This document shows positions 43,849 through 62,400 of a DNA stretch of 64,000 bases, piece by piece. The notes under the pieces were generated by a model. That model worked only from the letters and a program-made list of their open reading frames with translations, was not told where the DNA came from and did not search any database. Position numbers and translations under genes: made by a program. Position 1 is the first letter of the stretch; each line of letters starts with the position of its first letter. Source of the DNA: a virus (lineage: Duplodnaviria; Heunggongvirae; Uroviricota; Caudoviricetes); IMG/VR virus record IMGVR_UViG_2920292642_000002, positions 19,431-83,430 of that record; one strand, 5' to 3'.

Positions 43849-44593
43849 CTGCACTCAACCTGTTTGGGCCGGGTTTCCCTGTGTGCGCAAGCGCAGTCGC
43901 GCGGTCTCAATAGTGGACGATCTGGGTGCACCGGTCCCAACCCCTTCCTCTCCCTTTAAGCCAAGAGAAGGCGTAGCATTTATGGTTAGCGCCTATGCTT
44001 AATCCTGTCAATCGTATCTTTACACGTTCGGACATCCGTTCTGGACGCGTCGGCTCCTCCTCTCCCCTCGACGAGGCGGTAGCCGGTCGGTCAGACAGGG
44101 CGGTAGTTAGGGATTAGAGTTATTGGCTAATCTAAAATGCTACTGCTTCTCAAGGCTTTTAGGTAGGTTAAGGGGTAAGAGAAATTTAGAGGACCAGAAA
44201 ACTAGAAGCTGAGAAAACCAGAAATCCATCAGTCGATCAGGTTGAGTTCAGAGCGTCTGCACTCAACCCGAGATCAACGGACGGGCACGCCCCTTCTCAC
44301 CGGACAGCCGCCGCGCCGGCCGCACTCGATCCAGCGCAGCACGATCCACTTGATCCAATTCTAAAAGGTTGAGTGCAGACCGGCACCATCCACGCCCAAT
44401 CCCATCCTCTCCAAATCCCTTCTCCCAGCAGGATGAGTGCAGACCGGCACCATCCAAAACTCAGACTTACAAACACCGGGTTGAGTGCAGACGCGCTTCA
44501 CAGCCCGATCGCTTTGTCAAGGTATTATAGTGAGCCACTGTCCAGAATTTCTTGACATTTAGCCTCCAGAAGTCGAGACTCCGCACATTCTCC

Positions 44594-45699: not shown

Positions 45700-46091
45700 A
45701 GAAAATGAACTGGGACGACGAGATGCGTACCCACGTCCCGTCGATGTTCATCACCGAGGATGACGACGACGAGGTCGAGTTGGTCGACACCGGCCGCGTC
45801 GACAAGGACGGCGTCCCGATCATCATCGCGCTCTCTCACAAGCAGGGCTTCGCCGGCTTCCTGCCGCCCGGAATGTACGAGCGTATCCAGCAGGCGAAGG
45901 AGGAGGCCGAGGCCAAGGCTGAGCTTACCGAGATGATCGAGGAGATCGTCACCGTCACGCTGAAGAAGATCGGCATCAAGCTCCCGCCGCCCGCGCCGGG
46001 GCCGGCTCCGGCTGTGATCCCGCGCATCAAGGAGAAGACTGTCAAGGTCTCGAACAAGAAGAAGGGATCGGCCGATGCCCGTCCTGAGTAA
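45696..46091 (+). CDS. hypothetical protein (131 aa)
   Basis: tail of ORF 45477..46091 from ATG 45696. Confidence 0.4.
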   Translation: MKKMNWDDEMRTHVPSMFITEDDDDEVELVDTGRVDKDGVPIIIALSHKQGFAGFLPPGMYERIQQAKEEAEAKAELTEMIEEIVTVTLKKIGIKLPPPAPGPAPAVIPRIKEKTVKVSNKKKGSADARPE

Positions 46092-46566
46092 CCCGAAATG
46101 GGAGGTCTTCGCCACCGGTCTGGCGGACGGCCTCACCGTTCTCGATGCCTATGAGCAGGCCGGCTACCCGCGCTCGGCCTCCTCGGCGTCGCAGTTGAAG
46201 AACCGGCCTGAGCTTCAGTCGCGCGTGCAGGAACTGATCTACGAGAAGCAGAGCGCCGCCCGGCGTGAGTCCGAGAATGATCCCGACATCAACCCGCACG
46301 AACTCAACCGTGCATGGTTGATCACCACGCTGATGAAGAATGTCGAGATCGCCCAGAAGGCGCAGCAGATCGCACCGGCCAACAAGGCGGTCGAGATGCT
46401 GGCCGAGATCATCGGCTACTCGCTCAAGAACCGTGGCGGCAAGAACGCCAACGACGACGACCCCAACAAGGACGGCGAAGCGCCCGGCTTTGATTTCGAC
46501 AAGGCCAATGACGCCATCGGCCGGCTCATGGAAGTGCTGCCGGACGCACCGACCGAGGGTAGCTGA
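46075..46566 (+). CDS. terS: terminase small subunit
   Basis: N-terminal HTH-like region PKWEVFATGLADGLTVLDAYEQAGYP typical of phage small terminase family; immediately upstream of terL. Confidence 0.6.
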   Translation: MPVLSNPKWEVFATGLADGLTVLDAYEQAGYPRSASSASQLKNRPELQSRVQELIYEKQSAARRESENDPDINPHELNRAWLITTLMKNVEIAQKAQQIAPANKAVEMLAEIIGYSLKNRGGKNANDDDPNKDGEAPGFDFDKANDAIGRLMEVLPDAPTEGS

Positions 46567-49379
46567 TGGCCCGTCCCTACCCTTACGCGGATCGGGACCG
46601 GGTCTACGCGTTTCTCAAACAGGCCGAAGAGTTCGCCACTCTGGTCGAGAAGATCGCCGAAGGTCAGGCCGATCACAGTCCCGAGCTTCAGGGCGCGCTC
46701 GCCGCGCTCACCGGAGCCACCGACCTGCATCAGCAGCACAAGGCCGTCCAATACATGCTGGATCGTGCCCGCAAGGAGCACGAGCGCCGGCTGATCGAGG
46801 CCGCGCCGAACGACTTCACCGCCTATGTCGAAGTGATCAATCCGGAGGAGCCGTGCGCCTCGAAGCTGCACCGCTTCCTCGGCGAGACGCTGATGGAGAT
46901 GGAGGCCAATTCCGGCCTCAAGAAGGGCGTCTCGATGCCACCCGGCCACGCCAAGGACATGTGCGTGTCCACGCCTGTGATGTTGGCGGACGGCTCGATG
47001 AAGCCGCTCGGCGAGGTCCAGGTTGGCGACTTCGTCATCACCCACACCGGCAGCGCCCGCGAGGTTCTGGAGGTCCACGATCAGGGCAAGCGCCCGGTCA
47101 TGCGTATGCGCACCCTCTGCGGCCGTGAGCTTTTTCCACATCCCGAGCATCCGTTCCTGACGCCGGCCGGCTGGGTGCAGGCGCAATATCTGAAGCAGGG
47201 TGACGTACTGGCGCAGCAGCGCGAGTTCTCGATTCCCAACGGCTCCGGCCGGTCCCTCTACGATTTCATTCTGGCCGGCTACATGATGGCGGCTGGCATG
47301 GTGCGCGGCCGGCATTACAGCCGCGTCTTCACCGTCGACCGCACCTTCCGCACCGACGATCCCGAGATCATGGCCGATCTCATCGACACGGCCAAGCGAC
47401 TAGGATTCCGCGCGCGGATCGCCAAGAAGGGTAGCTACGGCAAGGAGATCGAGACCGCCCGGTTCGATGAGAAGTTCATCCACTGGCTGCGTGGCCAGCG
47501 CCTGAACGGCCTGCACCGCCATACCATGCGGGTCCCCGACTGGGTGTTCAAGGGTGGGCTGATCGAGATCGCCGCCTTTGTCGGCGCGATCTTCTCGATG
47601 GACGCCAGTCTGGTGCCGACCTCCCACAAGCAGAGCCTGAACGCCCGCAAGATGGTGATCCGGCTGCGCAACGCCGGATTGGTTGGTGACATGCAGCGGC
47701 TGCTCGCCCGCCTCGGCGCGCGCTCGGCACTCGATAAGCATCTGGTCAACAACTACAACTACGAGCCGACCGAGTTCTGGAGCCTGACGGTCTGGGACGC
47801 CGAGGATCAGTATTATCTCCAGCGCTCGATGCGCGTGCGTGGCGTCAACCAGCGCCTGTGGGCCGACCCGATCGTGCCGCGCGCCTTCTTCGACGGACGC
47901 TATGCCACCGACCGCATCATCGCGATCGACTATGACTGGGACGTGCGGGAGACCAAGTGCCTGACCGTCGACGAGGACCATTCCTTCCTCGCTGATGGCG
48001 TGGTGGTGCACAACTCCACCTATTGCTCGCGCCTGTTTCCGTCGTGGTGGATGGGCAAGCGCGAGAACAAGCGCTGGCTTCAGGCCGGCCACACCCAGCG
48101 TTTTGCCGAGAAGGAGTTTGGCAAGAAGACCCGCGACAACATCCTCGCCACGGCAGCCTATCAGAAGGTGTTTCCGGGCGTCGGGGTCAGCACCGCCTCG
48201 CAGGACGAGATCATCCTGACCAATGGCTGCGCCTACAACGTCAAGGGCGTCGGACAGGGCATCTCGGGTTACCGCTCGCACTTCAACAACGTCGACGACC
48301 CATACGCGACCCATGAGGACGCGATGAGCCCGACCATCCGCGAGAAGGTCTGGAACTGGTGGGCGAACGACTTCAGGACCCGTCGCCTGCCGGGCGCGGG
48401 CGAACTGATCATCGTGACGCGCTGGCACACCGACGACGTGGTCGGCCGTCTGGAGGAGATGATCAAGAAAGGCGAAATAGAACCATGGGAGTTTATTAAT
48501 CTACCCGCGTTTGCGGTAGAAGAAAACGATGTATTAAATCGCAAAATTGGTGACGTTTTGTGGCCGGAAGTATTCAAAAAAGAATTTCTTCTGGACATAA
48601 AAGGCACCAGTACGGAAGAAAACTGGTCCGCCCTGTACCAGTGTGCGCCAGTGTTGGAAAAGGGCAACATCCTCCAGCGTAACTGGATTAAATACTATAA
48701 ACAACTGCCGCAGCGTAGTATTCGCCCGGCTGGTACTGTGCAGGCCGTGAACCGGGCTCCCGTGGCCGATCCGCGCCTCGTACGGGTGGACCCTTTGAAA
48801 TTCAAAATCGGGGCCGAGGGACCCTCGGAATCGAAACCGGGGCCGGCCGATTCTGGAAATCAAAATTCGGTTTTTGCAATTCGAACCGTGGTTTCCGTCG
48901 ACACCGCCGAAACGGATTCGGCAAGGGCCGACCGCTCGGCGCTTCAGGTCTGGATTTATGGATCGGACCGCAACCACTATCTGGCGCATGCCTCGGTCGG
49001 CAAGTATCTGTTCCCCGACCTCGTCGAGGCGATCGAGACGACGGCGCTGGCATGGGGAGCCGATCTCGTGCTGATCGAGACCAAGGGCGCGGGTCTGCAA
49101 TACATTCAGGCGCGCACCGGCCACTCGCAGACGCCGATCATCGGTTTCAACCCGAAGAACATCGAGAAGTCGATGCGCTTTGACGGCACCATGGTGATGT
49201 GGCAGACCGGCACCGTGCTGCTGCCGGAGAAAGGGACATGGCTGGCCGACTATGTCGACGAGCTTCTGAAGTTCCCGTCTGGGCGTTACGACGACCAAGT
49301 CGACGCGACCAGCCAGTATTTGCACTGGCACCGGATCGACGGCGGCTGGGATCGCGGCATGAAGAAGATCAAGGGCTGA
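46566..49379 (+). CDS. terL: terminase large subunit interrupted by a 351-aa LAGLIDADG intein
   Basis: N-extein ...MPPGHAKDM | CVSTPVMLADG...VVVHN | STYCS...; C-terminal nuclease/ATPase region typical of TerL. Confidence 0.8.
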   Translation: MARPYPYADRDRVYAFLKQAEEFATLVEKIAEGQADHSPELQGALAALTGATDLHQQHKAVQYMLDRARKEHERRLIEAAPNDFTAYVEVINPEEPCASKLHRFLGETLMEMEANSGLKKGVSMPPGHAKDMCVSTPVMLADGSMKPLGEVQVGDFVITHTGSAREVLEVHDQGKRPVMRMRTLCGRELFPHPEHPFLTPAGWVQAQYLKQGDVLAQQREFSIPNGSGRSLYDFILAGYMMAAGMVRGRHYSRVFTVDRTFRTDDPEIMADLIDTAKRLGFRARIAKKGSYGKEIETARFDEKFIHWLRGQRLNGLHRHTMRVPDWVFKGGLIEIAAFVGAIFSMDASLVPTSHKQSLNARKMVIRLRNAGLVGDMQRLLARLGARSALDKHLVNNYNYEPTEFWSLTVWDAEDQYYLQRSMRVRGVNQRLWADPIVPRAFFDGRYATDRIIAIDYDWDVRETKCLTVDEDHSFLADGVVVHNSTYCSRLFPSWWMGKRENKRWLQAGHTQRFAEKEFGKKTRDNILATAAYQKVFPGVGVSTASQDEIILTNGCAYNVKGVGQGISGYRSHFNNVDDPYATHEDAMSPTIREKVWNWWANDFRTRRLPGAGELIIVTRWHTDDVVGRLEEMIKKGEIEPWEFINLPAFAVEENDVLNRKIGDVLWPEVFKKEFLLDIKGTSTEENWSALYQCAPVLEKGNILQRNWIKYYKQLPQRSIRPAGTVQAVNRAPVADPRLVRVDPLKFKIGAEGPSESKPGPADSGNQNSVFAIRTVVSVDTAETDSARADRSALQVWIYGSDRNHYLAHASVGKYLFPDLVEAIETTALAWGADLVLIETKGAGLQYIQARTGHSQTPIIGFNPKNIEKSMRFDGTMVMWQTGTVLLPEKGTWLADYVDELLKFPSGRYDDQVDATSQYLHWHRIDGGWDRGMKKIKG
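46962..48014 (+). other. intein with double LAGLIDADG homing-endonuclease domain inside terL
   Basis: block A CVSTPVMLADG, block B HPEHPFLT, LAGLIDADG-like LYDFILAGYMMAAGMV and LIEIAAFVGAIFSMDASL, block G VVVHN + Ser. Confidence 0.75.
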
Positions 49380-49688
49380 GCGGCGTTAACCTTACCTGCA
49401 CAAGGTTAACGCCCGCGCCCGGCTCTGCACTCAACCCAGTTTCCCTAATGATTTCAAGGCTTTACGCCGGACTCCTACCAACTCCTAGAATGTACGAATT
49501 AGGAGTTGGGGAAAATTTGGATGATCATGGCCTCCAGATTTTGGATGAGCATGGTTTTGCATGAGGTCTGGCATGAGCATGGTCGAATTTTTGGATGGGG
49601 GAGAATTGGAACACGCGCCTGCGCGAGCGCGCGCCCGGATCGCTCAGATTTTCGGAAAACTTGAGTAAAATTTGAAACAAGCCCGCCG

Positions 49689-49845
49689 TTAACCATGCTC
49701 AGGTAAGGTTAACGCGCCTTGTTAACCATTCTCAGGTAAGGTTAACGGCCGGCGTTAACCATGCGGGAGTAAGGTTAACGCCGACCGCCTCCACCCAGCC
49801 CGCCTCGTTAACCCTACCCGAGTAAGGTTAACAACGCCAGCCCCG
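49689..49845. promoter_or_regulatory. cluster of four tandem GTTAACC-N10-GGTTAAC palindromes plus a half-site (operator-like array)
   Basis: perfect 7-bp inverted repeats with 10-bp spacer repeated at 49692, 49727, 49762, 49812; same element precedes every downstream cassette. Confidence 0.55.
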
Positions 49846-49927
49846 GCGTTAACCTTGCTGGCGATCGCCACTTGCATTTCGTGCGCAATGCATTATTCTG
49901 TATCAGTCAACGCAACAGGAAAGAAAA

Positions 49928-50149
49928 ATGAGCAAGGAACCTCCCTTCCTCGACTGGGACGCGATCGAGACCGAGATCGCCGACACCAATCGCAAGGCGT
50001 GGGACGCCGAAAACACCCCGGAGAAGATCGCGGCGCGCAAGGCCAAGTCTGAAGCCGAGTTCGAGCGCGGAGTCCGTAACGGCTGGTGGGACAAGGACGG
50101 CAATTCCCTCCAGCCCGAGGAGCCGGACGAGGAGGAGGACGAGGAATAA
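49928..50149 (+). CDS. cassette small protein (73 aa, acidic C-terminus)
   Basis: preceded by TTGCAT...TATTCTGTATCAGTCAACGCAACAGGAAAG leader. Confidence 0.5.
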   Translation: MSKEPPFLDWDAIETEIADTNRKAWDAENTPEKIAARKAKSEAEFERGVRNGWWDKDGNSLQPEEPDEEEDEE

Positions 50150-50286
50150 GACGCCGGCCGTTAACCATTCCGGGGTAAGGTTAACGCGTGCCGGCCGCGC
50201 CCGGCGTTAACCTTGCTGTCCAGATTCGCTTTACAAATCCGGAGGCGTCGCCTAAGGTGCTCTGGTCAACGCAACCGGAGGACCCC

Positions 50287-50613
50287 ATGAGCAAGCGATC
50301 CGACAAGGCAGCGGCCAAGCTGTTCCACCAACTGTTTCCCGGCGTCGGCTGGGATTACACCGACCACAAGGCCAAGCCGCTGCTGCGCGCCGCGTTCGCC
50401 CTTTACGAATCGGAGTGGAAGACCACCCAGCCTCAGGCGTTCAGGATTGAGCGCTGGGAGTGGCCGGCTAAGGCGTTCAAGAGCGACGATCCATATGTTT
50501 TCGACGCGCATGAGCCGTGGACGGTGCTTTTCCGCGAGGTCAAGATGCTGCACGACGCTCACCGCGAGACAAGCGGATACCCGCGCACGCTGGCGGACCG
50601 GATGCCCCGGTGA
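50287..50613 (+). CDS. cassette small protein (108 aa)
   Basis: promoter TTTACA-N17-TAAGGT and leader GTCAACGCAACCGGAGG upstream. Confidence 0.5.
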   Translation: MSKRSDKAAAKLFHQLFPGVGWDYTDHKAKPLLRAAFALYESEWKTTQPQAFRIERWEWPAKAFKSDDPYVFDAHEPWTVLFREVKMLHDAHRETSGYPRTLADRMPR

Positions 50614-50726
50614 TGACCTACGAAATCACCACGGCGCTTACCTTCCTGCTGATCCTCAAAGTGCCGCTGCTGCTCTGGATCGTCCAGTTCACGATGGACG
50701 TGGACTCCGGTCGCATCAAGCTCTGA
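50613..50726 (+). CDS. hydrophobic micro-protein (37 aa, MTYEITTALTFLLILKVPLLLWIVQF...)
   Basis: TGATG coupled to previous ORF; terminator follows. Confidence 0.4.
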   Translation: MTYEITTALTFLLILKVPLLLWIVQFTMDVDSGRIKL

Positions 50727-50907
50727 AACGTCGAGGCCGGGCCAAGCGCCCGGCCTTTTTCGTGCCGGCCGGCGTTAACCATACCCGAGTAAGGTTAACG
50801 GCGAGCGCGCCGGCTGCTCCGAGGCATTAACCTTGCTGTCCAGAATCGCTTTACAAAAGCGGAGGTATGGCCTAAGGTCCTCTGGTCAACGCAACGGAGA
50901 GACCGAC

Positions 50908-51168
50908 ATGTTCAAAATGGAGTTCAGGACCGACAACGCCGCTTTCGTCGACGATCAGGCCGGCGAGATCGACCGGATTTTCCGCGAGGTCGCCGAGCGC
51001 GTCGCGGCGGCGGAAAAGGGCGGCACGATCCGCGATAGCAACGGCAACCGAGTCGGCCGCTGGGAACTGGAGGCCGAAGACGAAGAGGAGGAAAACCCCT
51101 TCGATCCCGAGAGCCCGGAGGGTCGCGCGTGGGAGCGCGGCGACCGTCACCTTGTGGGAGGCAACTGA
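50908..51168 (+). CDS. cassette small protein (86 aa)
   Basis: leader GTCAACGCAACGGAGAG. Confidence 0.5.
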   Translation: MFKMEFRTDNAAFVDDQAGEIDRIFREVAERVAAAEKGGTIRDSNGNRVGRWELEAEDEEEENPFDPESPEGRAWERGDRHLVGGN

Positions 51169-51404
51169 TGACCAAGCGAGAGAAGCGCCGTTTCATCCGC
51201 GAACTGATCAGCGCTGTCCAGAAGTCAATTCTGGATCGTGTCCCAGACATGCCGGAGGAGTGGGACGGTCACGAACTGCGCGCCTATATCGCCGAGAAGT
51301 TCGGCGAAACCGTTGTGACGGTCGGCAGGACCGGGCACTATGGCAAGCCCTACGCCAAGCGGACCCGTGACTATCGCAACACCGTTATCGAGCGCAACCT
51401 ATGA
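51168..51404 (+). CDS. cassette small protein (78 aa)
   Basis: coupled to previous. Confidence 0.45.
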   Translation: MTKREKRRFIRELISAVQKSILDRVPDMPEEWDGHELRAYIAEKFGETVVTVGRTGHYGKPYAKRTRDYRNTVIERNL

Positions 51405-51532
51405 CCCTATTCGTGGAAGGCTACGAGGCCGCGAGACGTGGCGTCAAATGGTGGCGCAATCCCTATCCCTCAGGCTCTGAGGACGCCTACACATGGGACA
51501 AGGGACACACGAGGTTCCGCACCATCGGCTGA
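51401..51532 (+). CDS. small protein (43 aa)
   Basis: ATGA coupling; manual translation. Confidence 0.35.
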   Translation: MTLFVEGYEAARRGVKWWRNPYPSGSEDAYTWDKGHTRFRTIG

Positions 51533-51843
51533 TGCTGCACCGCACAACACGATAAATCAGGAGGTCGGGCCGCGTGCCCGGCCTCTTTTGCATTGCGGTA
51601 AGAGATTGATCTGCAAGGCTGATCTGGTCCAACTCCGAAAAGGTGGAAAAGCGGAGATGTCCGAAATCTGCGGCAAAGTTCGGACCGGCCGGGCCTTAAC
51701 CCTACCCGGTCAAGGTTAACCCGTCGACAGGCTCAGGACGCCCGGCCGCGCCACCTGCCGGCGTTAACCATGGCCGAAATCTCCGCTTGCAAATCATGCG
51801 GGATGCACTATTCTGATCCTGTCAACGCAACGGAGTTTTCGAC

Positions 51844-52077
51844 ATGGCAGTGCATTCCCTCGACACCTTCGGCCAGCCGGACGGCTCGACCCAGATCAAG
51901 GATCGGACCGGCGCACTGGTCGCCACCCTCGACTGGGACGGAGAGGCCAGCGCATGGAAGGTCACCCCGGACAACGACCCGATCGGCTTCCCGCGCCCGG
52001 CACACTTCGCCAGCCGCGTCGCGGCCGAGTTCTGGGTGCTGGCCTACGCCAACGAACTGGAGGCGACCGGGCATTGA
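51844..52077 (+). CDS. cassette small protein (77 aa)
   Basis: leader GTCAACGCAACGGAG. Confidence 0.5.
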   Translation: MAVHSLDTFGQPDGSTQIKDRTGALVATLDWDGEASAWKVTPDNDPIGFPRPAHFASRVAAEFWVLAYANELEATGH

Positions 52078-52149
52078 GCCCGGTCTTTTCCTTGCCCGGC
52101 CGGCGTTAACCCTACCCGAGTAAGGTAAACGCGGCCGGCTGCGGCGTTA

Positions 52150-52225
52150 ACCTTGCTGTCCAGATTAGCTTTACAAGAGCGGAGACCACACCTATGATGC
52201 TCTGGTCAACGCAACGGAGGACGTA
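52150..52225 (+). promoter_or_regulatory. representative cassette promoter and leader: GTTAACCTTGCTGTCCAGATT - TTTACA - N17 - TATGAT - GCTCTG - GTCAACGCAACGGAGG - ATG
   Basis: -35 TTTACA at 52170-52175, -10 TATGAT at 52193-52198, SD GGAGG 7 nt before ATG 52226. Confidence 0.55.
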
Positions 52226-52477
52226 ATGACTAAAGGCCCTATCATCCATGCACCTGTCGTGGTGCGCGAAGCATTCCGCATCGGCGATGAGATCATCGAC
52301 GCCAACCCGATCAGCGGTTTCCATTTCTCCGTCGAGACGATCGGCGGCAAGGTCTACACCGGATGCCCGGAAGAGTACGCCGACAACGGCGTTCTAATTC
52401 TCGACTGCGTTGGCGGCACGCCGACGCCGATCATCGACGTTGCCAAGATCGCCGCCATCACCGTGGTTGAGGTCTGA
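52226..52477 (+). CDS. cassette small protein (83 aa)
   Basis: ORF track. Confidence 0.5.
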   Translation: MTKGPIIHAPVVVREAFRIGDEIIDANPISGFHFSVETIGGKVYTGCPEEYADNGVLILDCVGGTPTPIIDVAKIAAITVVEV

Positions 52478-52480
52478 ACT

Positions 52481-52696
52481 ATGACGCACTATCCCCTTAC
52501 CCACGTCGACGGGAGCGCCGACAAGCGCTACTCGATCGCCAAGGAGTTTTGCGGCCACGCCGATCGCCGCTGGGTGCTCCGCTTCTGCGGCGAGTTCGTC
52601 AAGTCGTCGATCAGCTTTGCCAGCGTCGCCATCCGCGCCGCTGGTCACCGCTCGGCACTCAACGGCCAAGTGATATTTGAGGAGGTCCGGGCATGA
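52481..52696 (+). CDS. cassette small protein (71 aa)
   Basis: ORF track. Confidence 0.45.
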   Translation: MTHYPLTHVDGSADKRYSIAKEFCGHADRRWVLRFCGEFVKSSISFASVAIRAAGHRSALNGQVIFEEVRA

Positions 52697-52887
52697 AGAC
52701 CCAACTGCAACATTTTTGGGAAGCGCATCGCCGCATCGCCGATCTCAATGAAGCGATGCTCGATGCACTCTTCGGACCCAACCCGATCACCGACGCCGAG
52801 CTTCGCGCCTTGATCGAGAAGCGGCCGGAGCGTTACGGCCGCTTTGCCGGCTATCTCGGCACCCGTCAGATGGAGCAGGCCGCGTGA
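52693..52887 (+). CDS. cassette small protein (64 aa)
   Basis: ORF track. Confidence 0.45.
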   Translation: MKTQLQHFWEAHRRIADLNEAMLDALFGPNPITDAELRALIEKRPERYGRFAGYLGTRQMEQAA

Positions 52888-53023
52888 GCGGCCTTTTCCT
52901 TGCCCGGCCGGCGTTAACCTAACCGAGATAAGGTTAACGCGGCGGCGCGGCCGTTAACCTTGCTGTCCAGATTTGCTTTACAGTCTCCCCGGCTCTGCTA
53001 TGGTGTTCTGGTCAACGCAACGG

Positions 53024-53274
53024 AGAGACTCATGTACGTGATCCGCACCCACACTGTCGAACTGGCCGACAAGCGCTTCCTGTCCAGCGACACGCTGACG
53101 GAGATGACGGCGAAGGAACTGCGTACCGCCGAGGCCGAGAACCGGTCCGGCATCGAATACAACATCGTCACCGCCGAGATGGCGCGCCGCTATGTCAAGC
53201 AAGGCATGGTCCATGAAACGGGACTCTGGGTCGACATGGACGGTAAGGTCCGATACGCCAAGGCCGGGGAGTGA
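53024..53274 (+). CDS. cassette small protein (83 aa)
   Basis: internal ATG of ORF 52960..53274 after leader. Confidence 0.5.
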
Positions 53275-53417
53275 TCCCGGCCAACCCTTCACGCGCGTTA
53301 ACCATTCCAAGGTAAGGTTAACGGCCGCTCCGGCGTTAACCTTGCTGTCCAGAATCACTTGCATCTGGCGCAATCTCCGCTATTGTGAGACTGTCAACGC
53401 AACAAAGGAGATCGCTG

Positions 53418-53741
53418 ATGTACATGTTCAAGGACAAGAAGCTGGAGCAGGACCAACGCAAGGTCCAGTTCGGCGACGCCGACAAGTCCACCCTCGCCAA
53501 CATCTGCATGGTCGCGGCCGAGCGCTTTCGGGAGAACGCGGCCGAGTTCCGCAAGTGTATCGACTACAAGCCGAAGGAAGGCGAGTTCCCAATCTTCCCG
53601 ACCGGCGAGGCAGCCAAGCGGCTGGTCGAGCAGTTCGAGCGGCAGGCAGCCGAGGCGGAGAAGTTCCGCGACCTGTTCGACAACGTGGTTCAAATCCCGG
53701 ACATGGTGACGTTTGTCGAGGAAGAGGAGGAGGCCGCGTAA
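53418..53741 (+). CDS. cassette small protein (107 aa, ends EEEEEAA)
   Basis: stop codon lies in loop of terminator hairpin. Confidence 0.5.
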   Translation: MYMFKDKKLEQDQRKVQFGDADKSTLANICMVAAERFRENAAEFRKCIDYKPKEGEFPIFPTGEAAKRLVEQFERQAAEAEKFRDLFDNVVQIPDMVTFVEEEEEAA

Positions 53742-53886
53742 GCGGCCTTTTTCTTCGCCCGCCATTAACCCTAACCGGTCAAGGTAAACGCGGCCGGCCC
53801 CGGCGTTAACCTTGCTGTCCAGATTCGCTTTACAGATGCCGGCGATCTGCTATGGTGCTCCTGTCAACGCAACGCAGGAGTCCTGA

Positions 53887-54436
53887 CATGGATCATCTCG
53901 CTTTCCTCATGCCCATTTTCAATCGCCCAATGGGCGAAAGCTGGATCACCATGGTGATCGATGTCGTGCAAAAGCGCGACGCCGAGGATCACCCGATCAA
54001 CGGCGCAGATGTCGTCTCTTCCTATGAGACCGACAATCCCAAGCTGATCGGACATTCGCTGCGCGATCTGATCATCTCGGCACAGGCAAGCGTCACCGGA
54101 CAAGAGGACTGGTACGCCATTCGCGTCGAATACCGCAACGCCAATACGGTCGACGCCAAGCGCGCCCGAGCCATGGTCAAGACGCTCACCGCGATCGAGA
54201 AAGCGGCCGAGAAACTGCGCGACAAGCAGGGGCTCGACTATCTCACCGCGATCCTGCTGGCCTTCGACAAGGTATTTCCGGGCATGCAACTGGCCGAGAC
54301 TTCCGAGGGCGGCACAGTGCGCGGCTTCTACAATCGCCACAAGTGGCGGTGGACGCCGATCGGCGGCGCAGTCCGGGCAATCCGATCGAGCGCCGAGGAG
54401 GCGCTTGTCAGACACAGGAAGGAGAAGGCCGCGTAA
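53887..54436 (+). CDS. cassette protein (182 aa)
   Basis: ORF 53852..54436 from ATG 53887. Confidence 0.5.
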
Positions 54437-54584
54437 GCGGCCTTTTCCTTGCCCGGCCGGCGTTAACCCTACCCGGTCAAGGTTAACGCGGCCGACTCCG
54501 GCGTTAACCTTGCTGTCCAGATACGCTTTACAAATGCGGAGGTCGTGGTATGGTGCTCCTGTCAACGCAACAAGGAGTTCTGAC

Positions 54585-54962
54585 ATGACCCACATGGAAA
54601 ACCGCATCGCCCGCGCCGAGGCGCTGCTGGCCGAGAAAGGCGTCAACGTCTCGACCAAGGCCAGCCTCAAGATCGCGATCGATCAGGCCGGCGTCGCCCG
54701 CGTCAAGCTGGCCGATGTCAAGAATCACCTCCATCTGGTCTCCATGGCGGTCGAACGTGTGCTGGAGACGGGTCATCGCCTGACCGCGCACGAGTTCAAC
54801 GACGAACGATATTCCAAGGCGGTCACGGCCTGCGCCGCGATCGGTTTTCGCGAGGCGCTGGCCGCGCTCGATCGCGCGATCGAGTTCGCCGAACGCGATC
54901 TGGTCGCGTGGCGCGACGCGTGGAAGAACATCCGCACCATGACCAAGGAACGGGCCGCGTGA
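54585..54962 (+). CDS. cassette protein (125 aa)
   Basis: ORF 54405..54962 from ATG 54585. Confidence 0.5.
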   Translation: MTHMENRIARAEALLAEKGVNVSTKASLKIAIDQAGVARVKLADVKNHLHLVSMAVERVLETGHRLTAHEFNDERYSKAVTACAAIGFREALAALDRAIEFAERDLVAWRDAWKNIRTMTKERAA

Positions 54963-54974
54963 GCGGTCCGCCCC

Positions 54975-55037
54975 ATGGTCGCAGTCTTCCAACTGATCCT
55001 TGCACTTCTACTACTTTACATCCTCTGGCCGCTCTGA
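54975..55037 (+). CDS. hydrophobic micro-protein (20 aa, MVAVFQLILALLLLYILWPL)
   Basis: sits between main ORF and terminator; paralog at 59283. Confidence 0.4.
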   Translation: MVAVFQLILALLLLYILWPL

Positions 55038-55202
55038 CGAGCGGCCTTTGGCTTGCCCGGCCGGCGTTAACCCTACCCGGTCAAGGTTAATACTACCGCA
55101 CCGGCCGCGACCTCGACGCGTTAACCTTACTACCGATCGCCGCTTGCAATTCATGCAGGATGCACTATTCTGATCCTGTCAACGCAAACGGAGGTTTTCA
55201 AA

Positions 55203-55679
55203 ATGTCTGCATGGATGGTTTCTAACGCCCACGTCACCGCAATGATTTCTTGTGCGGTCGCACTGTTCCGGGAGTCCGACTCCTTCTCCGAGTTCCGTCT
55301 TGCTAATGGCAAGACGGCCGCGCGCCACGCTTTGGCCACTGCCGATCTGACCGAGCTTGGCAAGCTCCTGCTTCAGGAGAACGCCAAGAGCCTCGACGCC
55401 CGCTATCCCGGCGATAAGGGGTCAAGCGATGGCGACATGTACCATCAAGAGGAGATCGACTCCTATGTCTACGCCCGCGACAGTCACGCGGCCGGTCAGG
55501 ATGTCGGATTCCTTGCCAAGTTGATTAGCTGTTACGCTTATCAGTCCTGCGAACATGACGGCTGGGAGACCAGCGCGGCCAAGCAATGGTGCGACTGGGC
55601 GCAGGAGGTCGGCATCTCGGTCCTGCCGAGCTACAAGCGCGCACCATGGGGCTATGACGGACCGCCCGCGCCGCGTTGA
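55203..55679 (+). CDS. cassette protein (158 aa)
   Basis: ORF track. Confidence 0.5.
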   Translation: MSAWMVSNAHVTAMISCAVALFRESDSFSEFRLANGKTAARHALATADLTELGKLLLQENAKSLDARYPGDKGSSDGDMYHQEEIDSYVYARDSHAAGQDVGFLAKLISCYAYQSCEHDGWETSAAKQWCDWAQEVGISVLPSYKRAPWGYDGPPAPR

Positions 55680-55864
55680 CACACACGCGGGCCAAAGGAG
55701 GCCGGGCCGATCGCCCGGCCTCTTTTTCGCGCCGCGCCGGCCGTTAACCCTACCCGAGTAAGGTTAACGCCGATCGCCGGCCGCGTTAACCTTTCTGTCC
55801 AGATTTGCTTGCATCTGGCACAATCTCCGCTATTGTGGAATAGTCAACGCAAACGGAGGCTCCC

Positions 55865-56263
55865 ATGCCGCTACCTTCTCACCTGTTCATCGCCGATGAC
55901 GGCGCGCTCTACGACACCCGCGAACCAAACTGGGCGGAGCGCGCCCTTCGCCCGGTCTACAGAAAGACCGCCGTAACCATCCACGATGTCGCCGAACTGA
56001 AGGCGACCCTGCGCGTCGGTTCGCATGCATGGCCGGGTGGCTATCCCCTGTACATCGTATTGCAGGATGGATCGCCGATCACCCATGACACCGCGCGCAA
56101 GAATTTCCGCGAACTGGTCGCCGCAATGTGGGACGAGAACCTGCGCAACGACTGGCGACCGGTCGCCACGGGAATCAACTGGGAAGACCCGGACCTGTAC
56201 GACGCGCACACAAATGAGCGAATCCCCTCGGCCTATGCCGAGCCGGAGGAGGAGGCGGCGTGA
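55865..56263 (+). CDS. cassette protein (132 aa)
   Basis: ORF track. Confidence 0.5.
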   Translation: MPLPSHLFIADDGALYDTREPNWAERALRPVYRKTAVTIHDVAELKATLRVGSHAWPGGYPLYIVLQDGSPITHDTARKNFRELVAAMWDENLRNDWRPVATGINWEDPDLYDAHTNERIPSAYAEPEEEAA

Positions 56264-56331
56264 TCCTGCTGGTCCGACTCTTCGGGCTGGCACTGGCGCT
56301 GCTGTTTGCCTTCATCGTCTTCCAACTATGA
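56260..56331 (+). CDS. hydrophobic micro-protein (23 aa, GTG start, ILLVRLFGLALALLFAFIVFQL)
   Basis: GTGA overlap with previous stop; followed by terminator. Confidence 0.3.
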   Translation: MILLVRLFGLALALLFAFIVFQL

Positions 56332-56514
56332 CCGGGCGCAAGCCCGGTCCTTCCCTCCCCGGCCGGCGTTAACCCTACCCGCGTAAGGTTAACGCGCCGA
56401 GCGCCGGCCGCACCTGTCGGCGTTAACCTTACCTGCCGGCCGGTCAAGTTTCCGCTTGCAATTGTCCAGAATTACTTTACAACTCAAGGAGGTCAACGCA
56501 ACGGAGTTTCCGCG

Positions 56515-57147
56515 ATGGAACGCATAAAACTTCCCAACGGCTGGTCCGCCGAAATTCATCAGGATGAGGACTGCGAACGTCCCTATCAGGACGATGACGC
56601 GGTGCGGATCGTCGTCCTGCACGGCCGTTACATCGATCCGGCCAAGGGAAACTGCGGATCGGACCCGGATGAGGTCGCGCGCTGGGTCAAGGAAAACGCC
56701 CGCGATTGGTTCGTGACCAATCTCTATCTGTACGATCATAGCGGCGTCGCCTATCGGGCCGGCGAACGCAATCCATTCTCCTGCCCATGGGATAGCGGGC
56801 AGGTTGGCATCGTCGCGCTCAAAAAGAGCGAATGGGGACGCGGCAAGGGCGAACGCAACGCCAAGCGGCTGGAATATGCCAAGTCCGTCGCCGAGGAGTA
56901 TGGCCGCTGGGCCAATGGCGAATGCTATGGCTATGTGCTGCACGATCCCGAGGGCGAGGAAAGCGACTCCTGCTGGGGACACATCGGTTACGATTGGGTA
57001 TGCGAGGCCGCGAAGGACGCGGCCGAGGCCGGCGAGAAAGCCCGGCAACGGAGATTGAAGGAGGAGCAGGAGGAACGGAGACTGGCCCGGCAATCCAGAA
57101 CCAAAGCTTACATCCGCAACCACGTGCCGCTGGACAGGCGAGTCTAG
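56515..57147 (+). CDS. cassette protein (210 aa)
   Basis: ORF track. Confidence 0.5.
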   Translation: MERIKLPNGWSAEIHQDEDCERPYQDDDAVRIVVLHGRYIDPAKGNCGSDPDEVARWVKENARDWFVTNLYLYDHSGVAYRAGERNPFSCPWDSGQVGIVALKKSEWGRGKGERNAKRLEYAKSVAEEYGRWANGECYGYVLHDPEGEESDSCWGHIGYDWVCEAAKDAAEAGEKARQRRLKEEQEERRLARQSRTKAYIRNHVPLDRRV

Positions 57148-57390
57148 GAGGTCGACAAATCCCACACATTGATTAAAAGGCCGGACAAACTGTCCGGCCT
57201 TTTTGCTTGTCCGGCCGGTGTTAACCTTACCTGATCAAGGTTAACGGCCGTCGACGAGGCCTCCGACCTCGACCTCCGCGTTAACCTTACCGTCGACATC
57301 GGAGTTCGATTTTTGAAAAATTAGCTTGCATCCGTCCAGAAAATCTGTACGGTCAGAGTTGTCAATGCAACGCGAAATGGAGATCGCACA

Positions 57391-58476
57391 ATGACCACTC
57401 TGATCAACGCCCACAACAATTGGGCGCGCCGCGCACCCGATGAACGCTTTTCGTCGGTCGCGGACCTGCACGCCGCAGCCCTCAACTACAAGAACGCTGC
57501 GCGGCAGACCTCGAACCTGCCCGCCACCCGGCTGGAGGCGAAGGCGACCGAGGACGGCGCAGTCGTCCTCAACGGGTCGATGACCGAAACTAAGCTCACT
57601 CACTGGAGCTTTGGCCAGCTTGCCAAGATCGCCGATGCGCCGGCCGGCTATCTTCAGGACCTGCCCGCGCCGCTTGCGGCCGACTGCCTGAACAACGGCC
57701 TGCGCAAGGCGGGCGGCAAGGTCAACCTGTTCTACAAGATGGATGATCCGACCGAGCCGGCCGGCATGCGCACGCTGCGCGCGCTGACCTCGAACCGCTA
57801 TACCCGAATCTGGAATAGTGACATCACCCGCCGACTTGGCGAACTGGAGGCCGAAGGGCCATGGCAGCCCGCGCCGGCTGCGTTTGACGGCAGCCGTGGG
57901 TTGTATCTCGGCGACCGCGACATGTTCGCCTTTATGGTTGACAATGATCGCCGTATCTTCGAGACTGGTCCTGCTGGAGGCCTAAGCCGTGGATTTTTCG
58001 TAGAAAACTCCGAAGTCGGCGCGGCCTCTTTCAAGTTCACCAGCTTCCTGTATGAGTTTGTATGTGGCAACCACCGCGTGTGGGGCGCTTCCGAAGTCAA
58101 GGAGGTGCGCATCCGTCACGTGGGCGCGGCCGACGACTCCGCCTTCCGTCAACTGGAGGCCGAACTGGTCGCCTATGCCAATGCATCGGCGGCAGACGAT
58201 GAACTGAAAATCCAGCGCATGCGCCGCTATACGCTGGGCAAGGACCTCGACGCCGTCATCGATACCGTTATGGGCTTGCGAGTGCCCGGACTCGGCAAGA
58301 AGATGATCGAAGCAGGCTACGATCGCGCAGAGCAGTACATTGATTGGTACGGCGCGCCTAACACCGCTTGGGCGCTGGCCGGAGGCCTGACGCAGATCGC
58401 CCGCGACATGCCGAACGCTAACGATCGGGTGGCGCTGGAGCGGGCTTCCTCGAAGGTCATGGAAATGGCCTTCTGA
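57391..58476 (+). CDS. cassette protein (361 aa; possibly DUF932-like)
   Basis: ORF track; largest cassette gene. Confidence 0.5.
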   Translation: MTTLINAHNNWARRAPDERFSSVADLHAAALNYKNAARQTSNLPATRLEAKATEDGAVVLNGSMTETKLTHWSFGQLAKIADAPAGYLQDLPAPLAADCLNNGLRKAGGKVNLFYKMDDPTEPAGMRTLRALTSNRYTRIWNSDITRRLGELEAEGPWQPAPAAFDGSRGLYLGDRDMFAFMVDNDRRIFETGPAGGLSRGFFVENSEVGAASFKFTSFLYEFVCGNHRVWGASEVKEVRIRHVGAADDSAFRQLEAELVAYANASAADDELKIQRMRRYTLGKDLDAVIDTVMGLRVPGLGKKMIEAGYDRAEQYIDWYGAPNTAWALAGGLTQIARDMPNANDRVALERASSKVMEMAF

Positions 58477-58703
58477 TCCGACCGGGCCGGGCGAAAAGCC
58501 CGGCCCTCCCCTCCCCGAACGGCCCGGTTTCGACCGGGCCGTTTTGATTCAAACTTTAATCGTCGGCCGGCCGAAATTAACCCTACACGATTAAGGTTAA
58601 CGGAAATCGGAGCCGTCGACGACCTCCGACCGTCCATATTTTCCGCTTGCATCCGTCAAGATTTCCTGTACAAATCAGGAGGTCAACGCAACGGAGATGA
58701 GAC

Positions 58704-59213
58704 ATGCCTGAGTTCATCATGGAAGGAAAGGAACTCCCTGAGTTCCGCAAACTCGATAGCTTCACACAGGGCTACATCCAAGCCCTATTCTTCACCGAAT
58801 GCGAGCCTAACACCACGGCGGACGCCGGACAGGTCGACGACTTCATTCGGCTCTGGGACCCGGAAACGCAATCGAGCCTCCCCGGCGATGTCGGTTTCGC
58901 CGATCTCGACGCCGACTCGCTGGCGCGGATCATCAAGGCCTGTCAGGAGTTCCAAGCGATCTACGAAGCGGACCTCGATACCGTCGACGGCTACGCCCAT
59001 GGCCGACGCGGTGAGACATATTGCCGGGAACACGCCGGCCATGACTTCTGGCTGACCCGCAACGGCCATGGCGCTGGCTTCTGGGACCGCTACAAGTCCT
59101 CAGACGACCAGCCCGACGTGAAGGCGGCATTCGATCGCCTCAGCGATGCGGCCAAGGCCAAGGGCGAATGCTGGGCCACCTATGGCGATGACGGCAAGGT
59201 CTACCAGTCTTGA
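58704..59213 (+). CDS. cassette protein (169 aa)
   Basis: ORF track. Confidence 0.5.
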   Translation: MPEFIMEGKELPEFRKLDSFTQGYIQALFFTECEPNTTADAGQVDDFIRLWDPETQSSLPGDVGFADLDADSLARIIKACQEFQAIYEADLDTVDGYAHGRRGETYCREHAGHDFWLTRNGHGAGFWDRYKSSDDQPDVKAAFDRLSDAAKAKGECWATYGDDGKVYQS

Positions 59214-59282
59214 CGTGATTCCGTCCCGGTGACCGGCGCGACGCCGGGCCGGGATCATGCAGAGCGCGCCGCAAGGTGTTTT

Positions 59283-59345
59283 ATGCAAGCCGTGTTTTCG
59301 CTGATCCTATCGGGTCTATTCCTTTACATTCTATGGCCCTTGTGA
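59283..59345 (+). CDS. hydrophobic micro-protein (20 aa, MQAVFSLILSGLFLYILWPL)
   Basis: paralog of 54975..55037; terminator follows. Confidence 0.4.
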   Translation: MQAVFSLILSGLFLYILWPL

Positions 59346-59518
59346 GGCCGGGCCGGGGAACCTCCCCGGCCTTTCTTTTGCGCCGCGCCGGCCGTTAACC
59401 CTACACCATTAAGGTAAACGCCGCGCCGGCCGCGCGTTAACCTTGCTGCGCGCAACGGCTTGCATCTGTCCAGCGAATCTGTACAAATCAGGAGGTCAAC
59501 GCAACGGAGTTTCACACA

Positions 59519-60103
59519 ATGACCCGCAAGGAATTTGACCTGCACGGCTTCACCGCCGCACTCGCCGCCGTCCTCGGCGGCAAAGATCAGTCCAATTCAG
59601 ACCATTCGATGACGCGGCTTAGCGTCATGACTGGAGCGGTGGAGATGAGCCTGCGCACCGGCTACGGCTCGACATGGAACAAGGTGACGATCTGCCCCTA
59701 TTTTCCATGCCAGCAAGGCTTGAACCACTATGAGCAAATCAAGGTCGACTCGATAACCGTGACCGGCGATCGTGACATAGCGGCCGTGGCCAAGGACGTT
59801 AAGCGGCGCATTCTCGACGGCATCGAACCCAAGCTGGAGGAGGCGCGCGCCCGCGTCGCCGCCCGTGAGACGCTGAAAAGCAGCGTCGCCGAACGTGCGG
59901 CCGATTGGCAAAGGCGTTTCCCCGGACTGCAAGTGAAGATCAGCAGTGATGGAACGGGCGCAGATGTTTATTACAACCGCGCCGGCCGTTATCTCAACGG
60001 CTCAATGACCCGCGATGGTACGCTGAGTCTTCAGCGGGTGTCACTCGACGGGCCTGAGACCTCTGAGGCACTGCTGGCCTTACTGACCGCCGCGCCGCGT
60101 TGA
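59519..60103 (+). CDS. cassette protein (194 aa)
   Basis: ORF track. Confidence 0.5.
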   Translation: MTRKEFDLHGFTAALAAVLGGKDQSNSDHSMTRLSVMTGAVEMSLRTGYGSTWNKVTICPYFPCQQGLNHYEQIKVDSITVTGDRDIAAVAKDVKRRILDGIEPKLEEARARVAARETLKSSVAERAADWQRRFPGLQVKISSDGTGADVYYNRAGRYLNGSMTRDGTLSLQRVSLDGPETSEALLALLTAAPR

Positions 60104-60348
60104 CATCTAAGCGCGGCAACGGCCGGGGATGAGCCAAGCTCTCCCCGGCCTTTTCACGCGTGCACCTGAGACCTGTTAACCATATCCGGGTAAGGTTAAC
60201 GCCGTCCTAACGGGCCGGGACCCTTCGGAATCAAACTCCGGGCCTTTCGAATCGCTGGTTAACTTTATCTCCGCTTTTGTACAGTTTCGCTTGACTTGTC
60301 GCACTCCGGCCCTATCCTCGACCCTGTCAACGCAATGGAGTTCATGAC

Positions 60349-60987: not shown

Positions 60988-61239
60988 TCAGCATGTGATG
61001 AGATCGCGGGCGCTTCATCCCTCCCCCCGGAGCCGCGCGCCTGCGAGACGCGGGGACCTCCCGCCGAGGTCCCGGCGTTTTCGTTTGCCGGCCGGCGTTA
61101 ACCATACCGAGGTAAGGTTAACGGCTACGCCTGCCCGCGTTAACCAAAGATGCCGGGGACCCTTCGGAATCAAAGATAGGGCCTTGCTATTATTGCAGAA
61201 TGCAATATTCTGATCTGGTCAACGCAACGGAGTTTTCAC

Positions 61240-61524
61240 ATGTCCATCGAAGTCGATACCGTCACTGCGCCGGCCTACTGGGCTTCAGCCCTGATCAATG
61301 GTGATGAGTCCGGCATGGAGGACCACGAGATCAAGGCAATGGAGATGTGGCTGAAAGGTCTCGGCGACTTCTACGTCGTCGACGTTGCCCGCGATGAGGC
61401 CGGGGAGTCGCAGGAGGCGCGCTTCACTTGGAGCTATGAACTGTATGGCGGCACGGCTCAAGGTGGAGACGTTCTCGACTATGTGGTGCACCGAATCGTC
61501 AAGCAGGAGGCCGGCGCGGCTTAG
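61240..61524 (+). CDS. cassette small protein (94 aa)
   Basis: ORF track. Confidence 0.5.
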   Translation: MSIEVDTVTAPAYWASALINGDESGMEDHEIKAMEMWLKGLGDFYVVDVARDEAGESQEARFTWSYELYGGTAQGGDVLDYVVHRIVKQEAGAA

Positions 61525-62388: not shown

Positions 62389-62400
62389 GGAGGCCGAGAA

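Follow-up and report, generated by a model that had tools for sequence, protein, structure and literature searches.

A lineage-specific direct-repeat array behind terL in phiCbK-like phages, with a possible role in genome-end formation

What is the function of the A/T-richer, non-coding DNA that directly follows the terminase genes of a phiCbK-like phage? The question is raised by a 64,000-nucleotide stretch of a Caudoviricetes record (IMG/VR IMGVR_UViG_2920292642_000002, positions 19,431 to 83,430; hereafter the window), the whole of which reads as phage DNA of the phiCbK/Cp1R7A-A1 siphophage type. In this DNA the leader that begins 1 bp past the stop codon of terL, the large terminase gene, is the sole non-coding leader separating terS–terL from at least 14 kb of small early genes. 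A sequence-only reading had singled out positions 49440–49680 as an A/T-richer segment with iterons and inverted repeats, and had proposed a replication origin or a packaging signal. We found that the segment does lie right after terL, since the upstream open reading frame (ORF) at 46566–49379 encodes an intein-containing TerL, and that its G+C content (0.473, compared with 0.596 for the window) falls in the 0.5th percentile of all 241-bp windows. The segment contains a direct-repeat array that occurs once in the window, and equivalent arrays occupy this position across the relatives of the phage. We tentatively propose that the array may be a cis-acting site for genome-end formation and packaging.

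The array consists of five to six units in which a TKGSATGR core is preceded by a T-tract, with main spacings of 24, 27 and 23 bp (24, 28 and 22 bp between the units at 49517, 49541, 49569 and 49591). Two units form a near-identical pair of 14–15-mers, TTTGGATGATCATGG (49516) and TTTGGATGAGCATGG (49540), and another, TGGCATGAGCATGG at 49569, matches at 12 of 14 positions; shorter units are TTGCATGAGG (49557), TTGGATGG (49591) and possibly TTGGAACA (49606). The direct repeats noticed earlier are therefore real, although the starts first assigned to them (49519, 49546, 49577 and 49600) were wrong by 2–9 bp. TKGSATGR is present on the + strand in five copies inside a 75-bp part of the array, compared with six in the remaining 64 kb; SATGR reaches 8 per 100 bp in the array, a 13-fold enrichment over 0.63 per 100 bp; and TTTGGATGR occurs three times in the array when 0.89 copies are expected for the entire window. 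Tandem Repeats Finder (score of at least 40) did not call the array because it is degenerate. No comparable array was found among the 22 early cassettes to the right of the leader, and a single-copy cis site therefore fits better than a set of operators. We also considered, and rejected, phased A-tract bending, as the tract spacings, read by eye, are not multiples of about 10.5 bp. Readings of the repeats as DnaA boxes, CsrA sites (GGA), LexA sites or Chi-like sites, judged by consensus, were dropped too, as none fits all relatives.

Around the array, the leader has a defined left-to-right order: the terL stop, a palindrome, CTGCACTCAACC, a hairpin, the array, a GC-rich block, an A/T-rich spacer, a palindrome cluster and the early cassettes (Table 1). 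Two motif territories abut here, with CTGCACTCAACC found only to the left and most copies of GTTAACC and GTCAACGCAAC to the right. The palindrome 3 bp past the terL stop folds with –14.2 kcal/mol (z = –5.4), and Cp1R7A-A1 has a GTTAACC...GGTTAAT copy at the matching position. The perfect inverted repeat with two 10-bp arms that had been reported before the array was confirmed, the first coordinates being one base wider; as single-stranded DNA it folds with –9 kcal/mol (z = –4.2 against shuffles), and it occupies the slot of a rho-independent terminator in most relatives (L006, L008 and L012–L015). Hairpins are thus common in this genome, as the window has about 25 different perfect inverted repeats that are 10 bp or longer, where about 2 are expected. 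By contrast, the GC-rich palindrome of the sequence-only reading did not hold up: the true sequence is aCGCGCCTGCGCGAGCGCGCGC, with A in place of the first G, and its folding is unremarkable against shuffles (z = +0.7). A 12-mer of the GC-rich block, CCTGCGCGAGCG, is also present in the L006 leader at a different relative position. Within the A/T-rich spacer, AAAATTTGAAAC is unique in the window and is identical and in the same place in L006/L007, and 'TTGA(A/T)TCAAAT'-type A/T-rich spacers fill this slot in L016, L017 and L025. A perfect WATCAANNNNTTR (AATCAATGGGTTA on the reverse strand) is found in the L006, L014 and L015 leaders, at other leader positions than that of GATTTCAAGGCTTTAC in the window.

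Table 1. Features of the leader, its flanking genes and the presumed right-boundary region (window coordinates)
Feature	Position	Strand	Remarks
terS (small terminase, 163 aa)	46075–46566	+	PHROG 11494 'terminase small subunit', E = 1.9e-9
terL (large terminase, 937 aa, intein-containing)	46566–49379	+	stop is the left edge of the leader
First GTTAACC-N12-GGTTAAC palindrome copy	49382–49413	.	12-bp arms, 8-nt loop; 3 bp past the terL stop
CTGCACTCAACC, rightmost copy of a genome-wide 12-mer	49425–49436	+	24 copies in 232–49436, none beyond
GATTTCAAGGCTTTAC	49450–49465	+	resembles GATTTCAAGGGCTTATAC of phiCbK; weak near-match to the IHF consensus; read by eye, without statistics
Inverted repeat CCAACTCCTA-N12-TAGGAGTTGG	49478–49509	.	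z about –4 on both strands; no T-run
Degenerate direct-repeat array	49512–49613	+	units at 49517, 49541, 49557, 49569, 49591 and possibly 49606
GC-rich block, not a dyad	49614–49634	.	GC 0.80; z = +0.7
A/T-rich spacer between array and CtrA-box cluster	49641–49687	.	GC 0.43, moderately A/T-rich; AAAATTTGAAAC at 49667–49678
Four GTTAACC-N12-GGTTAAC palindromes and a half-site (CtrA-type TTAACC boxes)	49688–49854	.	
First early cassette	49861–50149	+	promoter region, GTCAACGCAAC-GGA leader (49906–49920), 73-aa gene (49928–50149)
Second small cluster of iteron-like units (TTGGATGAG, GCATGGATGAGC, GATCAGCATGTGATGAG)	60952–61002	+	11.6 kb past the terL stop
GGGGACCCTTCGGAATC, single copy of the GGGGACCC-type repeat	61155–61171	+	15/16 match to the Colossus unit

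To determine how widely this organization is shared, we compared the regions behind terL in Cp1R7A-A1, phiCbK, Colossus, CcrSC and about 25 metagenomic or genomic relatives (L numbers denote individual sequences). The window TerL is 70% identical to that of Mesorhizobium phage Cp1R7A-A1 and about 32% identical to those of Caulobacter phage phiCbK and its relatives. All close relatives (TerL 50–70% identical) keep one order from the terL stop to the first small gene: the stop, CTG[CA]ACTCAACC, a hairpin that is mostly a canonical terminator, an array, an A/T-rich spacer, TTAACC-type boxes and the small gene. At least four exact copies of a 7-mer within 260 bp, in the 1.6 kb behind terL, were present in 17 of 26 relatives, compared with 5 of 56 control segments. 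The relatives' arrays have four to seven copies with a period of 22–27 bp, and in all relatives examined the array stands in a fixed relation to the CtrA-box cluster, directly upstream of it. The repeat sequence is lineage-specific, the unit being CCAAACGGGA in Cp1R7A-A1, GGCCGGAGAGAA in L006, CATTTTCTTATGC in L013, CCGAGTC-N8-CCATTTTTGC in L008 and of a GGAAC type in L014 and L015. A TTTTGGATGR core is common to the window and L012, and the last unit, GAATTTTTGGATGGGGGA, is almost identical in the two though their flanks are unalignable. Distant relatives, including phiCbK, Colossus, a Hoeflea metagenome-assembled genome (MAG) and Rhizobium rosettiformans W3, carry a GGGGACCC-type array right after terL, which in phiCbK has six copies with an exact 24–25-bp period; they have a second, variable, T-tract-containing array just 5' of the CtrA-box cluster. 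The array-bearing group spans Caulobacter, Brevundimonas-type, Rhizobium, Hoeflea, Mesorhizobium and Pseudaminobacter elements.

This distribution bears on whether the array has any dedicated function. It might be slippage-prone, fast-evolving filler, with the hairpin a mere terminator for terL, and such an account would suit repeats so degenerate that the repeat finder missed them, whose sequence differs even at 70% TerL identity and for which we identified no binding protein. However, the presence, copy number (4–7), period (22–27 bp), T-tract orientation and position of the array are kept down to about 32% TerL identity, and the last unit is preserved between the window and L012 despite their unalignable flanks. 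As position, period and copy number are conserved, filler is disfavoured and, in our judgement, improbable.

We made two further observations on the relatives' arrays. GANTC, the target of the CcrM methyltransferase, is found in each repeat unit of several relatives (CCGAGTC six times in L008, GATTC/GACTC in Colossus; regions L008 4975–5125, L010 1375–1520 and L039 4433–4560 were read by eye, without statistics), which hints at methylation-sensitive binding; in the window, GACTC at 49469–49473 is the only GANTC site near the array. Additionally, the annotated gene Cp1R7AA1_033 (L001 6653–6901, an 82-aa 'hypothetical protein') runs for its whole length across the CCAAACGGGA repeats together with two GTTAACC palindromes, and it has no PHROG match; it is probably spurious and not a gene.

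The position of the array coincides with the place where the genomes of characterised relatives end. Gill et al. (PMC3556154) used tag ligation to map the left terminus of phiCbK, which falls in terL codon 652, with the right terminus 10,287 bp downstream. They placed the left terminus of Colossus in non-coding DNA slightly downstream of terL and named it the packaging initiation site. In the sequence records, the phiCbK repeat (1–10287) starts 779 bp before the terL stop and the CcrSC repeat 763 bp before it, and the physical end of Colossus reads as 95 bp past it. Lacusarx is described as having a 10.5-kb double-coverage block that adjoins terS/terL, and Mascolo et al. (PMC9437464) describe the large terminal repeats of phiCbK, Lacusarx and Cp1R7A-A1 as rich both in CtrA sites and in small genes. 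A direct terminal repeat of 10–24 kb thus has its left boundary, at which packaging starts, at the 3' end of terL or at the junction downstream in those relatives that have been characterised. Because the genome ends of these relatives lie at terL, the segment would by homology sit within a terminal repeat, about 0–1 kb from its left end, and the present phage would likewise have a long direct terminal repeat bounded by terL. The packaging signal of the sequence-only reading thereby gains support from its position, and the terS–terL pair stands immediately upstream of the leader.

By homology with phiCbK, CcrSC, Colossus and Lacusarx, a long direct terminal repeat, not permuted, would have its left boundary at the leader junction, where terminase would make its first cut in the concatemer, with packaging then running rightwards. 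The five to six units of T-tract and TKGSATGR, with the hairpin on the left and the A/T-rich spacer on the right, would act as a nucleoprotein assembly site for genome-end formation and the start of packaging, and phage-specific motif copies about 11 kb downstream would mark the other boundary of the repeat. We infer both that a protein binds the repeats and that this binding serves packaging. In Colossus, GGGGACCCTTCGAAATT is found on both sides of the mapped left terminus, with one copy about 57 bp outside and six copies 355–481 bp inside, an arrangement that resembles, by analogy, pac sites flanking their cut.

Motif copies near the right boundary are consistent with this scheme, although they are suggestive only; the boundary is mapped in phiCbK and presumed in Cp1R7A-A1 and the window. 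In phiCbK, two of the three non-array GGGACCC copies of the first 12 kb flank the mapped right end (10287), at –44 and +171; both phiCbK arrays also have their best or second-best k-mer match within 200 bp of that end. In the complete genome of Cp1R7A-A1, rotated to the terL stop, the last CtrA-type site is at +10778 and the repeat core recurs at +11307, beside three copies of GGGGACCC (+11.2–11.3 kb), with CTGCACTCAACC at +11,550. In the window, the 80-bp segment with the most 6-mers in common with the array, anywhere in the 64 kb, falls at 60947–61002 (15, compared with a mean of 1.8 and s.d. of 1.9); beyond it come the last palindromic GTTAACC site and a GGGGACCCTTCGGAATC. The iteron-like cluster at this place is a possible right-boundary counterpart of the array; it overlaps the 3' end of an ORF (60349–60987), so chance or coding constraint may also account for it. 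The GGGACCC 7-mer occurs at chance frequency in the window, and only the 15/16 match of GGGGACCCTTCGGAATC to the Colossus unit stands out.

Several observations weigh against a role in packaging. The N-terminal ~55 amino acids of TerS, the usual DNA-binding domain, are nearly invariant among eight close relatives with differing repeats, and this domain varies among distant relatives that have the GGGACCC repeat in common; it therefore co-varies with the repeats in neither direction. For want of such co-variation, which weakens the simplest packaging model, we dropped TerS as a simple reader of the repeats, and it is unlikely that the conserved helix-turn-helix of TerS reads their variable part. 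Nor does g3, a variable small protein encoded between ruvC and terS, follow repeat type; it tracks phylogeny, with 64% identity between the window and Cp1R7A-A1 and 42% between the window and L012. The distance from the array to the mapped left end varies from about 350 bp in Colossus to about 850 bp in phiCbK, and it is to the CtrA-box cluster, rather than to the genome end, that the array holds a fixed relation. The terminal repeat of the present phage is itself an extrapolation from its relatives. The right-boundary matches are weak, post hoc and built on short motifs, with GGGACCC and GGATGAG at chance frequency overall, and the GTTAACC boxes and early cassettes run past the presumed boundary, to at least 63.8 kb in the window.

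The same anatomy can be read as an iteron-type replication origin, in which a phage initiator would bind the repeats, the A/T-rich spacer would melt and the CtrA boxes would block or time initiation, as they do at the chromosomal origin of Caulobacter. The leader has the three or more direct repeats, spaced by about two helical turns, of such an origin, in degenerate form: five to six repeats 23–27 bp apart, next to a 47-bp A/T-rich spacer (49641–49687, GC 0.43) and flanked by inverted repeats. The array, spacer and CtrA-box cluster follow one another in conserved order in all relatives examined. The site is single-copy, lineage-specific repeats are what co-evolution with an initiator predicts, and TTTGGATGA agrees with the complement of the textbook DnaA box, TTATCCACA, at seven of nine positions. 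This architecture, which had suggested an origin to begin with, fits. Cumulative GC skew showed no inflection at 49.5 kb, its extremes lying at about 33 and 42 kb, and the turning point is 5–7 kb upstream of the site, at the divergent region at 42–44.5 kb. The whole Cp1R7A-A1 genome is also without a skew inflection at the corresponding site, with the turning point about 6 kb upstream of the terL stop in a divergent promoter region. A turning point away from the site is what the sequence-only reading had named as refuting, and it is seen here in a weak sense; GC skew in such phages mostly tracks transcription and is thus a weak test, and we lowered the origin idea without discarding it. No Rep/O/DnaA-like family was found when 24 ORFs from across the 64-kb window were searched against Pfam and PHROG; the site has terS and terL as neighbours, along with the gene for a 73-aa protein whose family (PHROG 23094) has no known function, and the replication module (T7-like polymerase, helicases) is about 40 kb off. 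The two or three different arrays in the leaders of larger relatives would be unusual for a single origin, and an origin does not predict that the motifs recur near the right repeat boundary. On balance we regard an iteron-type origin as unlikely.

Another place in the window has origin-like features. The 700-bp divergent intergenic region at 43855–44551 has an A/T-rich core (about 44100–44230), five CTGCACTCAACC copies (cluster 44240–44490) and, on the minus strand, units of TTTTGGATGG/GCGTGGATGG that resemble iterons; no other minus-strand sequence scored higher in k-mers matching the array. As the region adjoins the GC-skew turning point, it is an alternative origin candidate.

We next considered the array in relation to the early cassettes, at least 22 of which (each with a CtrA-type box, promoter, GTCAACGCAAC-GGAG leader and small ORF) follow in near-identical form up to the window end. 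GTTAACC is strongly concentrated here, with 60 of its 65 copies in 49385–63783 and 2.6 expected for the whole window. All 15 GTTAACC-N12-GGTTAAC palindromes are in 49385–61122, and the four canonical CtrA sites (TTAA-N7-TTAA) are all at 62125–63781. As the palindromes end by 61122 and the canonical sites start at 62125, the site architecture switches at about 61–62 kb. CtrA boxes belong to the flanks of the leader and not to the repeats: 49440–49680 contains no GTTAACC. For phiCbK and Cp1R7A-A1, Mascolo et al. (2022, PMC9437464) report that promoters with boxes of this kind are bound and activated by CtrA. GTCAACGCAAC(N)GGAG is found just 5' of start codons in 22 copies in 49906–63856, all on the + strand and about one per small early gene; GTCAACGCAAC itself has 24 copies in the window (1.2 expected), 22 of them to the right of the leader. 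Relatives carry a like leader (TGTCAACGCAAACAGGAG and similar), so that this is a conserved element of the 5' untranslated region. Within the same territory we observed a perfect tandem repeat of 38 bp in 6.2 copies with 100% identity (63530–63766), 14.1 kb past the terL stop, with a TTAA-N7-TTAA site directly adjoining it at 63767. Recent expansion or an assembly artefact could account for this repeat, or it could be a boundary element.

Given this setting, the repeats could be a regulatory array that binds a transcription factor or nucleoid protein, phage- or host-encoded. Such an array would stand between terL, transcribed late, and the first of the CtrA-dependent early promoters, and would serve there as an enhancer, silencer or insulator. 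The array lies directly 5' of the first cassette and keeps its relation to the CtrA-box cluster across relatives; the GGGGACCC array of phiCbK extends to 10 bp ahead of the gp001 start codon; and CtrA-dependent activation was shown by experiment in phiCbK and Cp1R7A-A1, as PMC9437464 reports. Against this, the repeats are absent from the other 21 cassettes and are therefore no general operator. They are about 180–410 bp from the first start codon, with the CtrA cluster intervening; a consensus scan predicted no sigma-70-like promoter in 49200–50400; and we found no co-varying regulator among the syntenic neighbours. A regulatory array thus has, in our estimate, a rather small chance of being the answer. 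The origin and regulatory readings fit the anatomy almost as well as packaging does. A joint reading, in which the array, spacer and CtrA cluster at the head of the terminal repeat form a cell-cycle-gated cis element that serves as an origin, alone or together with packaging, appears doubtful; if true, CtrA in swarmer cells would bar phage replication or processing until host S phase, mirroring the host origin, and the element would represent an origin class new to phages and offer a mechanism behind the proposed 'lytic deferment'.

One more explanation is that the segment is expressed. To the left of the array, CTGCACTCAACC belongs to a motif with 24 copies in the window, compared with 0.5 expected, and 20 copies in Cp1R7A-A1; it also follows the terL stop in L001, L012, L013 (twice) and L015. 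Seven copies are preceded by CAT, so that the complement, GGTTGAGTGCAG-ATG, is the ribosome-binding region of genes, and other copies stand at operon ends ahead of hairpins (24629, 31561 and 49425). The complementarity of these 3'-end copies to ribosome-binding regions suggests, as far as sequence can tell, antisense control of translation. As a genome-wide motif tied to ribosome-binding regions and operon ends, CTGCACTCAACC was ruled out as a terminase cut site. The segment might yield a small RNA running from CTGCACTCAACC to the hairpin at 49478–49509, or else a 47-aa protein from an ATG-started ORF of 47 codons (49521–49664) that covers the array. For the RNA, the 12-mer at 49425 is complementary to the GGTTGAGTGCAG-ATG region of at least seven genes, and a hairpin follows it as at two other operon ends. 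However, that hairpin has no U-tract, and our consensus scan found no canonical terminator in the segment; Rfam searches (gathering threshold and E ≤ 1) returned no family there, only two sub-threshold hits, both on the 49382–49413 palindrome. Neither ORF across the repeats, 49521–49664 (+) or 49499–49696 (–), matched a PHROG family, and in L012, among other relatives, the repeats are not spaced by multiples of 3, so there is no conserved reading frame. We consider expression of the segment very improbable.

The window also carries genes for a T7-like DNA polymerase, an SNF2 helicase, RtcB, nicotinamide adenine dinucleotide (NAD) salvage and a RuvC-like resolvase, besides terS, whose place directly 5' of terL is the same in all relatives. 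For P0001, a protein identical to the window TerL, the Pfam domains Terminase_6C and Intein_splicing are on record. An IMG/VR scan with TerL as the query gave no match, and a one-genome-per-species scan found distant (about 40%) relatives only. Exact-protein look-ups with the TerL sequence of the window and with P0002, the Mesorhizobium homologue, returned no entry. The RNA gene set is very rich for a phage of this type: 26 transfer RNA (tRNA) genes are clustered at 23043–31431, and inside this cluster are a GOLLD RNA (Rfam RF02032, 205 bits; 28100–28566, minus strand) with a tRNA-Arg embedded within it and, between tRNA-Lys genes, an 81-bp unit repeated twice with 81% identity (26639–26798). 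A permuted alpha-type transfer-messenger RNA lies near the cluster at 12958–13269 (minus strand). A TerL identical to that of the window is recorded in a 391-kb contig of the bacterial isolate Pseudaminobacter sp. 19-2017, a 40%-identical relative was found in a 1.04-Mb Hoeflea MAG contig, and Cp1R7A-A1 encodes two tyrosine recombinases and a helix-turn-helix regulator (63479–64138 and 90645–91892; L072/L073). This supposedly virulent lineage may have integrated or otherwise carried forms among its members.

phiCbK-like phages are standard tools in Caulobacter cell-cycle research, and an unannotated repeat array at a fixed place behind terL throughout the group offers a defined cis element to work on in phages as tractable as phiCbK and Cp1R7A-A1. 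The array may also serve as a sequence marker for finding genome ends in metagenomic relatives.

Compared with known systems, the array fails at least one defining test of each kind: there is no co-variation with TerS, and there was neither an initiator found nor a skew switch. Short repeats near the cut and the terminase genes are also a property of lambda cosB (R1–R3 and an IHF site), P1 pac and SPP1 pacL/pacR. The likeness to cosB extends to a possible IHF-like site in the window leader, and that to P1 pac, where hexamer repeats stand on both sides of the cut, to the Colossus repeats on both sides of a mapped end. By contrast, the lambda, P1 and SPP1 sites are read by the small terminase, whereas the TerS DNA-binding domain here shows no co-variation with the repeats; the array-to-end distance ranges from 350 to 850 bp in phiCbK-like phages; and their genomes end in exact repeats of 10–24 kb, unlike cohesive ends or headful permutation. 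The short-repeat arrays of T7 and the non-coding region of the T5 terminal repeat are, as here, phage-specific repeats beside or inside direct terminal repeats in phages that package from concatemers, and their role is poorly defined as well. T7 and T5 belong to unrelated families with no sequence similarity, the T7 repeats are about 7 bp and closely packed, and the T5 region is tied to a two-step DNA injection not known for phiCbK-like phages. Ori-lambda has four O-protein repeats and an A/T-rich region, and it shares with plasmid iteron origins and the present leader four to seven direct repeats about two helical turns apart, an A/T-rich neighbour and a lineage-specific sequence. The leader differs from these origins in having no initiator gene found nearby, no skew switch, distant replication genes and, in relatives, several arrays. 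The Caulobacter chromosomal origin carries CtrA sites, and a CtrA-box cluster adjoins the array here.

The phiCbK-like terminal-repeat boundary is also where differences within the group can be stated. The repeats are of a TTTGGATGR type in the window, GGGGACCCTGGCAAAT in phiCbK and Colossus, and CCAAACGGGA in Cp1R7A-A1. The window leader has one array in 0.55 kb, whereas the larger phages have two or three in 1–2 kb, and the terminal repeat that has been described in phiCbK-like phages is presumed by homology in this one. The available portions of four papers (PMC3556154, PMC9437464, PMC5648845 and PMC10688885) do not describe the repeat arrays; the layout of the locus, by contrast, is already known from phiCbK-like terminal repeats. 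The boundary described by Gill et al. (2012, PMC3556154), with the CtrA-box-rich early genes of Mascolo et al. (2022, PMC9437464), has the same terS, intein-containing terL, non-coding leader and many small genes with CtrA boxes. phiCbK and Colossus likewise have a direct-repeat array behind terL, and Cp1R7A-A1, the closest relative, has the same kind of layout throughout.

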